Assembly (NCBI GenBank): GCA_963674825.1 | Contig: OY771587.1 | Location: 512,001-576,000 of the forward strand | Direction of reading: 5' to 3' | DNA: 64,000 nucleotides | Origin: Candidatus Cloacimonadales bacterium | GTDB lineage: Bacteria > Cloacimonadota > Cloacimonadia > Cloacimonadales > JAIOQZ01 | Shown here: piece by piece, positions 21,883 through 24,836 of the stretch | Position numbering within the stretch: position 1 is the stretch's first letter | How the letters are laid out: the number at the start of each line of letters is the position of its first letter | The notes under the pieces: generated by a model | Databases searched by the model: none | Told to the model about the DNA's origin: nothing | What the model saw: the letters and a program-made list of their open reading frames with translations, nothing else | Made by a program: the position numbers and the translations under genes

Positions 21883-22554
21883 TTATTCGTCCTTCATGAT
21901 ATAGCCTTTTCCACGCACCGTGTAGATGAGCTTCTTGCTGAAACCGCGATCCATCTTGTTACGCAGGTGGTGGATATAGACATTAACGACGTTGGTTACT
22001 GGGTCGTAGCTCATGTCCCAGACATTCTCCACGATTTCCAGTTCGGAGACCACGCGGCCCTTGTTGCGCATGAGGAATTCGAGCAACGCGTATTCTTTGC
22101 CTGTCAACTGAACGACTTTACCCGCGCGATTCACCCTGCGGCTGAGGAGATCGAATTCAAGATCGGCTACTCTGAGCACGATTCCCTTGTATTCATTGTC
22201 ACGGCGAAGCAGTGCGCGTATACGTGCGATCAATTCGCTGAACGAGAAAGGTTTGCAGAGATAGTCGTCAGCTCCAGCATCAAGACCTTTGATCTTGTCT
22301 TCGATCGTGTCTTTACCCGTGAGCATAATAACGGGTGTCAGGATTCCCTGTTTGCGCATGGTCCGGCAAACTTCCACGCCATCCTTTCCTGGAATCATGA
22401 TATCCATTACGACTAAATCGTATGTGCTTTTCGAAATTTTATCAATGGCCTCATTGCCATTTGCTGTAACTTCCACCACGAAGGACTCTTCCTCAAGACC
22501 CTTCTTGATGAACGCTGCAACCTTTTGTTCGTCTTCAACCAGTAGTATTCGCAT
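21883..22554 (-). CDS. OmpR/CusR-family response regulator (no adjacent kinase)
   Basis: 'MRILLVED', 'MDIMIPG', 'GLDAGADDYLCKPF', winged-helix 'TNVVNVYIHHLRNK...TVRGKGY'; GGAGGT RBS precedes the ATG at 22554. Confidence 0.92.
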   Translation of the reverse strand: MRILLVEDEQKVAAFIKKGLEEESFVVEVTANGNEAIDKISKSTYDLVVMDIMIPGKDGVEVCRTMRKQGILTPVIMLTGKDTIEDKIKGLDAGADDYLCKPFSFSELIARIRALLRRDNEYKGIVLRVADLEFDLLSRRVNRAGKVVQLTGKEYALLEFLMRNKGRVVSELEIVENVWDMSYDPVTNVVNVYIHHLRNKMDRGFSKKLIYTVRGKGYIMKDE

Positions 22555-22641
22555 ACTGCGTACCTCCATTTAATCTAAAACCAAAACTCACTTGCATGAT
22601 TCTAGTTAAGACACTCTATCTTTTTTTTATCATAGATATAT

Positions 22642-22668
22642 TAAACCGTCGCGCCAAATTGCCGATAA
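22642..22668 (+). promoter_or_regulatory. sigma28 (FliA/SigD)-type promoter
   Basis: TAAA (22642-22645), exactly 15 nt, then GCCGATAA (22661-22668): the canonical consensus. Confidence 0.8.
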
Positions 22669-22687
22669 AAAAATGTATATTTTTTCG

Positions 22688-22714
22688 CATGGATGCAAAA
22701 TTGATTCAGGGAGG
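22688..22714 (+). promoter_or_regulatory. Two putative CsrA/RsmA-binding sites in the mRNA leader
   Basis: CATGGATG within the hairpin TTTTCGCA-TGGA-TGCAAAA, and CAGGGAGG overlapping the SD; both fit CANGGANG. Confidence 0.55.
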
Positions 22715-22719
22715 AAGAA

Positions 22720-22860
22720 ATGAGCATTCGCAATGAATCACGTCAAACCGTGTCACTGAGCATCGATTCGATCGAAAAACTGGCCGGTCTGACGCACAAT
22801 CAGATTATCGAGCATCGCACAGACGCGATTATCGCACAGGTAGCACAGATACCTGCATAA
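22720..22860 (+). CDS. 46-aa mini-protein resembling the flagellin C-terminal D0 helix
   Basis: MSIRNESRQTVSLSIDSIEKLAGLTHNQIIEHRTDAIIAQVAQIPA*; SD GGGAGG; aligns without gaps to the typical flagellin tail EMAxFTxNQILQQAGTAMLAQANQLP. Confidence 0.7.
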   Translation: MSIRNESRQTVSLSIDSIEKLAGLTHNQIIEHRTDAIIAQVAQIPA

Positions 22861-22905
22861 TTCGTCAACGCTTTGTTTCGAAAACGTCTTCCTTTGACGT
22901 TTATG

Positions 22906-22941
22906 AAAATGCCGCTCTGGAAACCCTGAGCGGCATTTTTT
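22906..22941. terminator. Bidirectional terminator between the mini-gene and the ABC exporter operon
   Basis: AAAATGCCGCTC...GAGCGGCATTTTTT. Confidence 0.88.
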
Positions 22942-23024
22942 ATCATCTGAGAGGCTCGCTTGTCTTAGAATTCGATCCCTCTCTATTCTCTATTCATTGT
23001 TCACTGTACTTCGTAAATTATCCC

Positions 23025-24836
23025 TTATCCTGTTAGCAACGCTTTTTCGTTCTCCTCCAAGAACTGGTTCGTGTAGAGCTTGTAGTAATAGCCCTGCAAG
23101 CGAATCAGGTCGTGATGTGTTCCCTCTTCGATGATCTCGCCATTGTTAATTACCAATATCCTGTCGGCTGAACGAATCGTCGAAAGCCTGTGCGCGATGA
23201 GGAAGCTCGTCCTCCCTACCAACAGCTTATCGATAGCGTCCTGGATAAGGTGCTCAGTTTCGGTATCGATCGAGGAAGTCGCCTCGTCGAGGATAAAGAT
23301 CTGCGGATCGGATATAATCGCGCGCGCAAAAGAAAGCATCTGCTTCTCGCCGGTGGAGAGCATGTTACCGCCTTCGCCCACGCTCGTATCGAGTCCCTTC
23401 TCCATGCGAGCGATGAGCCTGTCGGCATTGACCATTTTCAGTGCTTGCATGATCTCTTCGTCGGTCGCGTCCAACTTCCCATAGCGGATGTTGTCACGGA
23501 TTGTGCCATTGAAGAGGTGCGGTGTCTGAAGCACCACGCCGATGTTCGACTGCAATTTCTCCAGGGGGATATCGTGGCTATCGACGTCATCGAACCGGAT
23601 GTTTCCCGATTGCGGCTGATAAAACCTGCAAAGCAGATTTACGAGCGTTGTTTTGCCGGAACCGGTCTCCCCCACCAACGCGATCTTTTCGCCGGCGCGG
23701 ATGGTGAGATCGAAATCATTGAACACGGTCTCGCCTTCCTTGTAGGAAAAGTTCACTTTATCGAAGCTAATCTCCTTTTCGATGCGGAATGGCTTGTTAC
23801 CCCAGCTCTTGATACGCTCTTCGTCGTCTTTGATCTCAACTTCTGTGTCCAGGAGTGAGAAGACGCGTTCTGCTGAGGCTTGCGCGTTCTGCATCTCCGC
23901 GAAGATTCGAGCGATTTGCCAAACCGGCTCGAAGAACTGAACGATATAAGAGGTAAACGCCACCAGCGTACCGTAAGTCATCACTCCAGCGATGACCCCC
24001 GAACCACCGAACCACACAACGAGCCCCGAACCCAATGCGCTGATAAACAGCACGACCGGGAAGTAGATCGCCGAAAGAACCGCAGCCCGAACCGACGCTC
24101 CGTACATGGAGCCGCTCAGCGTCTGGAATTCCTTCAGATTCGCCTTCTCGCGCACCAGCGTCTTGGTCGTCTTGGCGCCGTTGATGCCTTCATTGAAAGC
24201 ACCTGTTATCTTCGAATTGATCTTGCGCACCTTACGATAGGAACCCAGGATCACCTTCTGGAATTTCAGGCTGACGATCACCAGAACCGGCACCACCGAA
24301 AGCGCGATGAGCGCCAGCTTCCAGTTGAGGATCAGCATCACGATCGATATACCGATCATGAGGGCTGTTCCCCACACCATATCGACAATACCCCAGGCGA
24401 TGGTCTCGCCGAGGCGTTCGCAGTCGGAAGTCAGGCGAGCCATGAGCCAGCCGACCGGCGTGCGGTCGAAGTATGTGAAAGAGAGCTGTTGCAGTTTATT
24501 GAATCCGTCCCTGCGGATATCGTAGATCATGTTCGTTTCCAGCTTTCCCGCGATCAGGATAAACAAGCAGATCACAAACCCGAAGAGGGTAACGATACCG
24601 AAGTATAGCGCAGCGAAACCCCAAATGCCATCGAGGTTCTTCGGGACAATGTAGTGATCGATCACGTATCGCGTGAACAGCGGAAACACCGTGTCCATGA
24701 GTGCTGTCAGCAACATGCAGGCGAGGAGTATCCCCACCAGCACCTTGTATTTCATCGCATAACGGAATACACGTACCCACAGCTTGAGGTCGAATCGCTT
24801 CGTGTAATCTTGTTCTTCGAATGCTGTATGTGCCAT
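23025..24836 (-). CDS. ABC exporter, fused permease/ATPase, subunit 2
   Basis: Membrane domain plus Walker A 'GETGSGKT', signature 'LSTGEKQ', Walker B 'FILDEATSSID', 'IAHRLST'. Confidence 0.95.
   Translation of the reverse strand: MAHTAFEEQDYTKRFDLKLWVRVFRYAMKYKVLVGILLACMLLTALMDTVFPLFTRYVIDHYIVPKNLDGIWGFAALYFGIVTLFGFVICLFILIAGKLETNMIYDIRRDGFNKLQQLSFTYFDRTPVGWLMARLTSDCERLGETIAWGIVDMVWGTALMIGISIVMLILNWKLALIALSVVPVLVIVSLKFQKVILGSYRKVRKINSKITGAFNEGINGAKTTKTLVREKANLKEFQTLSGSMYGASVRAAVLSAIYFPVVLFISALGSGLVVWFGGSGVIAGVMTYGTLVAFTSYIVQFFEPVWQIARIFAEMQNAQASAERVFSLLDTEVEIKDDEERIKSWGNKPFRIEKEISFDKVNFSYKEGETVFNDFDLTIRAGEKIALVGETGSGKTTLVNLLCRFYQPQSGNIRFDDVDSHDIPLEKLQSNIGVVLQTPHLFNGTIRDNIRYGKLDATDEEIMQALKMVNADRLIARMEKGLDTSVGEGGNMLSTGEKQMLSFARAIISDPQIFILDEATSSIDTETEHLIQDAIDKLLVGRTSFLIAHRLSTIRSADRILVINNGEIIEEGTHHDLIRLQGYYYKLYTNQFLEENEKALLTG

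Follow-up and report, generated by a model that had tools for sequence, protein, structure and literature searches.

Proteins that compete with flagellin for its chaperone FliS, or for the docking site of that chaperone, are already known, and they include HP1076, FlaG and FlgM. HP1076 of Helicobacter pylori, a protein of 171 amino acids (aa), is described as binding FliS and as competing with flagellin in vitro (PMC7248283); FlaG of polar flagellates is described as antagonising the docking of FliS–flagellin to FlhA and as limiting filament length (PMC11536152); and FlgM is stated also to bind FliS in Salmonella and Yersinia (PMC7248283). The flagellin D0-C segment bound to FliS is presented in complexes of A. 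aeolicus, B. subtilis, Salmonella and H. pylori (PMC6070490, PMC7248283), and FliW is reported to protect the flagellin D1-C segment (PMC6070490). The subject of this report is a 46-codon gene of a Candidatus Cloacimonadales bacterium, located in a 64,000-nucleotide stretch of contig OY771587.1 (positions 512,001–576,000 of the forward strand; hereafter the window, to which positions refer unless a genome coordinate is given), where it occupies a small transcription unit at 22642–22941 of the forward strand. The gene is real and under selection, its promoter and leader are conserved, the design of its leader is common only to it and to flagellin genes, and the flagellar partner genes are present in the same genome. 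There is about an even chance that the locus specifies a flagellin-co-regulated ligand or decoy of FliS, with a conserved helix that resembles flagellin D0-C.

Flagellin synthesis is also controlled at the level of the mRNA leader, and the hag leader of Bacillus subtilis is part of a FliW–CsrA–flagellin circuit. In Campylobacter jejuni, the motif (C/A)A(A/T)GGA was reported in 324 of 328 CsrA peaks (Dugar et al., PMC4894983), and the flaA mRNA is described as having a 45-nucleotide leader with two ANGGA sites, the second of which lies over the ribosome-binding site (PMC4894983). The spacing of the two flaA GGA triplets is given as 21 nucleotides and the optimum as 18 nucleotides, CANGGANG loops are described as high-affinity CsrA sites, and a flagellin leader is reported to be able to titrate CsrA (PMC4894983).

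The initial annotation, made from the letters of the window, had proposed a complete small unit consisting of a promoter, a Shine–Dalgarno (SD) sequence, a 46-aa open reading frame (ORF) and a terminator, and each of these elements was found in its place on re-reading. A sigma-28 (FliA/SigD)-type promoter has its −35 element, TAAA, at 22642–22645, followed after 15 nucleotides by the −10 element GCCGATAA at 22661–22668, which ends 51 nucleotides ahead of the ATG. The 5′ leader, whose start was placed at the usual distance after the −10 element, is predicted to span about 44 nucleotides (22676–22719) and includes the SD sequence GGGAGG at 22709–22714; the ORF listing gives 46 codons from the ATG at 22720 to a TAA (22720–22860, stop codon included). 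An intrinsic terminator, read from the sequence and folded, occupies 22906–22941 and consists of a GC-rich AAAAUGCCGCUC...GAGCGGCAUUUU hairpin of the 12-bp class followed by a run of six T; a consensus terminator scan overlooked it because its loop is longer than 8 nucleotides. The relatives carry a GC-rich hairpin, different in each, at the same position after the stop codon, and a clear U-tract is found in this genome only.

A tblastn search of 61 genomes of the order, the host genome included, identified the ORF in the host genome and in all three other species of the genus (E 1.8e-13 to 4.5e-15, 67–72% identity); the relatives are labelled Candidatus Cloacimonadales or Cloacimonadota at NCBI. 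All four orthologs have 46 codons and no insertions or deletions (indels), and the pairwise ratio of nonsynonymous to synonymous substitution rates (dN/dS) is 0.11–0.18 over the whole ORF, at dS values of about 0.7–2.0, which exclude that the four genomes are near-clonal. The ratio falls to 0.05–0.13 in codons 14–46 and is 0.24–1.0 in codons 1–13. Given these ratios and the fixed length, the ORF at 22720–22860 is a real protein-coding gene under strong purifying selection, and the conserved ORF of about 45 aa that the initial annotation had proposed to look for is present, behind the same promoter, in four species. Residues 1–13 of the peptide are variable and residues 14–46 are conserved and helical (invariant: S14, I15, I18, E19, K20, L21, A22, H26, I29–R33, D35–I37, A39, Q40 and Q43–A46), and the AlphaFold2 model of the monomer contains a single helix at residues 15–42 with a mean predicted local distance difference test score (pLDDT) of 74.8. 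The SD sequence and the ATG are likewise invariant in the four species, and conservation collapses past the stop codon.

Outside the genus, none of the 57 genomes yielded the gene, the five other tblastn matches having E values of 0.36–0.92. A second match in the host genome (E 0.085) was rejected as noise, since its frame contains an internal TGA and its context is unrelated. A collection of 5.8 billion proteins yielded the query and one relative only, with no further homolog, and a profile search of all 1.84 billion representatives yielded the family's own cluster and two long proteins (P0004 and P0005), which were rejected as relatives because they are internally repetitive and their scores were piled up over 5 and 8 stretches.

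The initial annotation had proposed to confirm the partners of a flagellar role, namely fliA, fliS and full-length flagellins, elsewhere in the genome, a single contig of 3.89 Mb with a GC content of 49.6% (in which the window is G000:C1:512001–576000). There, fliA, fliS, fliW, csrA, five flagellin genes and an FlgM-like gene were identified: FliA scores 268 bits against a cut-off of 189.6, CsrA 74.5 bits and FliW 139.7 bits, the last two being encoded next to flgL. Four flagellin genes (fla1 to fla4) lie in tandem at G000:C1:686889–691237, and the fifth (fla5) is at 3739549–3740430, upstream of fliD–fliS.

The leader links the small gene to these flagellin genes. It is near-invariant in the four species and its conservation exceeds that of the coding sequence (dS about 0.7–2.0). 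A CsrA-type site, CATGGATG (22688–22695; CANGGANG class), lies within GCATGGATGC at 22687–22696, and a second GGA is held by the SD sequence; the CsrA-type leader word CAUGGAUG stands 19 nucleotides ahead of the SD sequence. The word GCAUGGAUGC, 19 nucleotides upstream of the GGA of the SD sequence, precedes fla2 and fla3 in identical form, and the leaders of fla1 and fla4 contain CAAGGAUG at a spacing of 20–21 nucleotides. In the host genome, five sequences match the pattern CA.GGATG-N8-20-[AG]GGAGG-N3-10-start, namely those ahead of the four tandem flagellin genes and of the small gene. Because this pattern had been derived after viewing those five sequences, it was run again in the four genomes together with a reversed-pattern control; of its 17 matches, 14 belong to genes of flagellin clusters and 3 to the small gene, with none elsewhere, and the reversed pattern had no match in the same genomes. 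The word and its distance from the SD sequence agree with the CANGGANG and (C/A)A(A/T)GGA sites and the spacing of roughly 18–21 nucleotides reported for C. jejuni flaA (PMC4894983), and suggest that translation of the small gene may be controlled by CsrA. A weak 3-bp GCA/UGC hairpin can be drawn by eye in the leader, the fold Z-scores of the four leaders range from −0.5 to −3.1, and an Rfam scan of 22400–23200 at E ≤ 10 returned only four sub-threshold chance matches.

A second line of evidence comes from modelling of the peptide with the genome's own FliS, using an alignment of 36 rows for FliS (144 aa) and of 4 rows for the peptide. The interaction prediction score from aligned errors (ipSAE) was 0.78 (0.76, 0.78 and 0.78 in the individual runs) versus 0.00 for the best of three controls; among solved complexes 116 of 157 attained this mark, and among mismatched pairs 2 of 215. 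The runs agreed in at least 90% of contacts, with a pLDDT of at least 69 for the partner, and the predicted interface comprises peptide residues 13–43 and FliS residues 12–22, 62–88 and 100–121. Twelve residues of H. pylori FliS are listed as bonded to FlaB in the account of Lam et al. (PMC7248283); they were mapped through an ungapped phmmer alignment to chain 3iqc_A (offset +2, checked at Tyr28), and eight fall within the predicted interface (L62, S65, D67, G71, N77, L85, G106 and E117). Among the remaining four are H. pylori Arg33 and Arg56, which hold FlaB Leu513 and Leu512; these two leucines have no counterpart in the peptide. An end-to-end alignment was obtained between the genome's own flagellin tail and the FlaB fragment of 6lea, in which the tail residues E57, F61, A76, Q77, N79 and L88 correspond to FlaB Glu481, Phe485, Ala500, Gln501, Asn503 and Leu512. 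In the BLAST register, the invariant A39–Q40 of the peptide corresponds to Ala500 and Gln501, the Ala-Gln pair held by FliS in the H. pylori structure, and the most confident contacts (FliS 77 with peptide residues 21 and 25, and FliS 106 with residue 22) are within about one helical turn of that register; these correspondences were taken from printed alignments rather than from a structural superposition. The modelling thus supports binding of the peptide to the D0-C groove of FliS, the site of the flagellin tail, in agreement with the pairing that the initial annotation had put forward.

The likeness to the flagellin tail was approached in several ways. BLASTP aligns the peptide with the genome's own flagellin at 19.6 bits (pairwise E 0.001, 7 of 31 identities), in a gap-free register that sets peptide residues 15–45 against flagellin residues −39 to −9 from the C-terminal end, and hhalign selects the same register. 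With full-length flagellins, the best ungapped profile–profile segment pairs peptide residues 6–45 with columns 282–321 of 331; its score is reached by one of 2000 column shuffles, a result that is inflated because shuffling destroys helical periodicity. When the six-frame ORFs of 100 aa or more (9,799 in all) were given the same ungapped scoring, the five flagellins ranked 6, 31, 38, 64 and 91. Four measures of similarity (hhalign, BLASTP, the ungapped profile and the ORF ranking) accordingly choose one tail register. Of the 30 best clusters in the ESM Atlas, 28 have one set of short fragments in common, 13–57% of them with Flagellin_C, at a top score of 0.92; by the calibration of the tool, these neighbours are a lead, not proof. 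The gap-free alignment on which the initial annotation relied was therefore reproduced against the genome's own flagellins for peptide residues 15–45, and the NQI motif that it emphasised is not conserved, being replaced by DKI, DKI and DSI in the relatives. The peptide ends 8 residues short of the flagellin C-terminus and contains nothing that matches D0-N or D1, neither a recognisable flagellin N-terminal segment nor a counterpart of the D1-C segment.

Two further comparisons with flagellar sequences were made. FliD, encoded on the − strand, ends in ...LQQQIASIPAIG; this end and the flagellin tail are about equally similar to the peptide end AQVAQIPA, but FliD ranks only 1207 of the 9,799 ORFs by ungapped score. 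At the DNA level, the flagellin cluster offered no evidence of homology: only two collinear 12-mers were found, TCGCATGGATGC and AATCAGATTATC, each with an E value of 0.12 in this small search, and longer words occur by chance genome-wide.

From these results, the following role is proposed for the peptide as a FliS ligand. The sigma-28-type promoter would turn the small gene on in the manner of a late flagellar gene, and its translation would probably be gated by CsrA at the leader and SD sites, as for the tandem flagellins, within the FliW–CsrA circuit. The peptide would be produced alongside flagellin, and its helix (residues 14–46) would occupy the FliS site that normally holds the flagellin tail. 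Having no parts for polymerisation or for FliW binding, the peptide would be a competitor of the flagellins for FliS and might titrate the chaperone, as the initial annotation had suggested. Such competition could delay or limit the delivery of flagellin to the FlhA export gate, the likely outcome being a brake or buffer, and unexported flagellin could then hold FliW, so that CsrA-gated translation would be lowered and flagellin synthesis indirectly reduced.

Several results weigh against this role. The peptide matched no family in Pfam and NCBIfam at E ≤ 10, including Flagellin_C (PF00700), a model that does find the five flagellins of the genome (75–91 bits), so that the Pfam comparison proposed by the initial annotation speaks against the likeness. 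When the four peptides were compared with the five flagellin tails, hhalign gave a P value of 0.03 and a probability of 1.7%; a hidden Markov model (HMM) of the family found no flagellin at E ≤ 0.001 among the 1.84 billion representatives; and with HMMER against 49,394 six-frame ORFs the only flagellin listed was fla4, at rank 95 with 4.4 bits (30th in the list limited to ORFs of at least 100 aa). The shuffle test may partly measure one amphipathic helix against another. The Atlas match has 141 of 256 features in common, under the 170 typical of true family members, and in its calibration shuffled proteins reached at least 0.9 in 4–10 of 100 cases. The last 8 flagellin residues, which the peptide lacks, contribute contacts to FliS. 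As to the complex, the peptide alignment had only 4 rows; neither of the two partner controls was another amphipathic helix, both being unrelated natural proteins; and, according to a warning of the modelling tool, a pair that resembles a solved complex may owe its score to memorisation. FliS–flagellin complexes having been solved already, the high score is therefore a sign of likeness and not of binding, and it is not independent of the Atlas neighbours, because both rest on ESM-type models.

The leader and the promoter add further points against the proposed role. G002 and G003 retain the upstream GGA, which in G001 reads GAA, so that the two-site design is present in three of the four species, and in the minimum-free-energy folds of all four leaders the G(G/A)AU is paired with a downstream AUUC rather than looped. 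In the fold of 22674–22725, U-G-(G/A)-A-U is paired with A-U-U-C-A within an outer helix formed by the U-tract and GGAAGAAA, and the G-to-A change in G001 preserves, and even strengthens, this inner pairing (z −3.1). Since the change retains the pairing, a conserved leader structure may compete with the reading of the word as a CsrA site. For the promoter, no canonical sigma-28 promoter was seen at the four tandem flagellin genes or the fifth flagellin gene; the nearest sites are TAAA-N15-CCCGATTC before fla1 and GAAA-N15-ATCGATAA before fla4. Of 22 near-consensus candidate sites in the genome (at most 2 mismatches, outside long ORFs and with an SD-led ORF behind them), none stood before an evident motility gene.

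The FliA/SigD consensus is widely conserved among bacteria. Across the four species of the genus, TAAA and GCCGATAAAAAAA are invariant, as is the AAAAA directly after the −10 element, and the spacer is fixed at 15 nucleotides with a sequence that varies; together with the exact match to the consensus, this upholds the sigma-28-type promoter of the initial annotation. Exact TAAA-N15-GCCGATAA has a single copy in the 3.89-Mb genome, the site at 22642–22668, which is weak as evidence because about 0.5 copies are expected by chance (at equal base frequencies). The exact consensus was also searched in the 61 genomes, where the 30 loci fetched contained no analogous mini-gene outside the genus under a crude rule for SD-led ORFs, many sites being without such an ORF. 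That FliA reads this consensus in the lineage is an assumption, given that the flagellin genes have no canonical site and that no motility gene was seen behind near-consensus sites. For the same reason, the earlier label of a class-3 flagellar regulator stands only as far as the consensus match goes.

Other sites and flagellar genes of the genome are recorded here. A second sigma-28-like site, CTAAA-N16-ACCGATAA, lies 55 nucleotides before a low-complexity ORF of 148 aa without a Pfam family (G000:C1:3867749–3868275, − strand), and in G010 an exact TAAA-N15-GCCGATAA is followed by an ORF whose N-terminus (M.I.R[DE]LSFL) is similar. The tandem flagellin leaders read CA(A/T)GGATG-N-AAGGAGG and have no canonical sigma-28 promoter, and at the fifth flagellin gene a near-perfect sigma-70 promoter (TTGACA-17-TATATT) is accompanied by an AGGA hairpin at −85. 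Directly downstream of fliS is the FlgM-like ORF of 179 aa (G000:C1:3735893–3736432, minus strand), which scores 27.3 bits against a Pfam cut-off of 25; on DNA it contains two weak FlgM stretches (19.4 and 19.3 bits), and it resembles an FlgM of unusual length that was possibly duplicated. A reading of the small peptide itself as a miniature FlgM was dropped once this ORF had been identified beside fliS; the peptide had no match to FlgM (PF04316) in Pfam or NCBIfam, and the only FlgM-like matches of the genome adjoin fliS. FlaG (PF03646) was not found in the genome (best E 0.9, 11.5 bits), and the gap of about 280 nucleotides between fla5 and fliD contains no FlaG-type ORF. Two FliS proteins that are 62–73% identical to the FliS of this genome (P0009 and P0040) are filed under eukaryote transcriptome sets, one of them labelled Anaeramoba, a filing that suggests Cloacimonadota-like bacteria associated with, or contaminating, those eukaryote cultures.

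The small unit, which is distant from every flagellar cluster, is flanked by a divergent gene for an OmpR-type response regulator (21883–22569, − strand; Pfam Response_reg and Trans_reg_C) and by two convergent ABC exporter genes. The order of regulator (−), small gene (+) and two ABC exporters (−) is kept in all four species, and the genes farther upstream differ among them. No histidine kinase gene adjoins the regulator, whose neighbours are a glycosyltransferase gene and the small gene, and its likely sigma-70 promoter overlaps, on the opposite strand, the spacer of the sigma-28-type promoter.

Among the explanations other than a FliS ligand, that of an unrelated small helical regulator, whose likeness to flagellin is coincidental and whose FliS model is a false positive, is unlikely but has to be given real weight. 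Such a peptide might modulate the OmpR-type regulator; in Bacillus subtilis, the SigD-dependent DegR acts on DegU. No homology test reached significance, the pairing of regulator and small gene with overlapping divergent promoter regions has been kept in all four species where the genes farther upstream have not, and the distance from every flagellar cluster fits as well. Set against this are a leader design that, in four genomes, occurs elsewhere only at flagellin genes, the FliS complex at 0.78 versus 0.00 for the controls, the single tail register shared by four similarity measures, and the Flagellin_C fragments that make up the Atlas neighbours.

Less probable again is a FliS-chaperoned export substrate, which would ride FliS to the FlhA gate and be secreted, acting outside the cell or as an FlgM-like secreted checkpoint. 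The evidence for the FliS complex applies equally to such a substrate, and sigma-28 timing fits late substrates. Residues 1–13 are variable (dN/dS 0.24–1.0) and non-helical in the model, and disordered N-terminal segments are typical of export signals. The peptide, however, has no recognisable flagellin N-terminal segment, and the evidence at hand does not separate export from retention.

Quite doubtful is a two-level "flagellin surrogate", in which the leader mimics the CsrA-binding design of flagellin mRNA and the product mimics the FliS-binding tail, so that both arms of flagellin homeostasis are loaded. One sigma-28 unit would in that case load CsrA through its RNA and FliS through its protein, with no filament subunit made. 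If this were true, the locus would serve specifically to brake or time the growth of the filament, in a lineage in which FlaG was not found.

More doubtful still is an RNA as the main actor, in which the leader of a short and strongly transcribed mRNA of about 265 nucleotides would titrate CsrA in the manner of C. jejuni flaA mRNA and the peptide would be secondary or part of a dual function. The conservation of the leader beyond that of the coding sequence, the CANGGANG-type and SD-overlapping GGA sites 19 nucleotides apart, the only perfect sigma-28 consensus of the genome ahead of the transcript, and the CsrA titration reported for a flagellin leader (PMC4894983) all fit this explanation. 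Against it, codons 14–46 are under strong protein-level purifying selection, and the peptide therefore matters; the upstream GGA is lost in G001; and a single leader that binds one dimer would be a weak CsrA sponge unless very abundant.

A functionless, decaying remnant of a flagellin is scarcely credible, for although the weak tail likeness, the flagellin-like leader word and the ATGAGC start would suit one, the selection data exclude a dead remnant (46 codons without indels in four species and dN/dS 0.11–0.18 at near-saturated dS), the promoter, SD sequence and start are invariant, and four genomes of other genera have no flagellin at the corresponding place. The recently collapsed flagellin that the initial annotation offered as its alternative is contradicted by the same purifying selection and by the lack of a flagellin beside the orthologous ABC genes; around the orthologous ABC exporter in G004, G006, G007 and G008 neither a flagellin nor a small gene was found, a weak test in that synteny is not kept there.

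If the binding to FliS is true, the peptide would be a minimal natural ligand of the FliS groove and would show a chaperone–client interface turned into a regulator; it would also illustrate that regulatory context together with complex modelling can place 46-residue genes that fall under all homology thresholds. The locus also offers a concrete point of entry for tests of flagellar regulation in Cloacimonadota, an uncultured phylum. A literature search of limited coverage returned work on HP1076, FlaG, FliW and FlgM and did not find a free-standing flagellin-tail micro-protein with flagellin-type control signals.

The leader resembles those of C. jejuni flaA (PMC4894983) and B. subtilis hag, as far as these are described, in its sigma-28/SigD promoter, its length of about 45 nucleotides and its two GGA triplets about 20 nucleotides apart, the second at the ribosome-binding site. 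It differs from both in serving a 46-residue product that is not a flagellin, and in an upstream GGA that is not predicted to lie in a hairpin loop and is lost in one of the four species. Among the competitors of flagellin, FlgM is similar in being a small protein with a sigma-28-type promoter that turns helical upon binding; it differs in that the peptide has no FlgM similarity and a separate FlgM-like gene adjoins fliS. FlaG, as described, is likewise a small protein of the flagellar regulon, with an analogous expected outcome, but acts on FlhA instead of FliS, belongs to another family, and is larger and widespread (PMC11536152). HP1076 is, in the published account, also a non-flagellin protein of a narrow lineage at the flagellin-binding interface of FliS, but it resembles flagellin D1, binds the D1 site and not the D0-C groove, and is membrane-associated; its mutant is described as having no motility phenotype, and it shows no sequence relation to the peptide (PMC7248283). 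The closest comparison remains with flagellin itself. The peptide has only 46 residues, lacks the D0-N, D1 and variable domains and the last 8 residues of the tail, does not score with Pfam Flagellin_C, cannot be a filament subunit and, unlike the tandem flagellin genes of its own genome, is encoded behind a canonical sigma-28 promoter. It shares with those genes the CsrA-type leader, and with the D0-C segment, as presented in the FliS complexes, a helix of about 30–40 residues, for which the same FliS surface is predicted, with its Ala-Gln pair in register (PMC6070490, PMC7248283).

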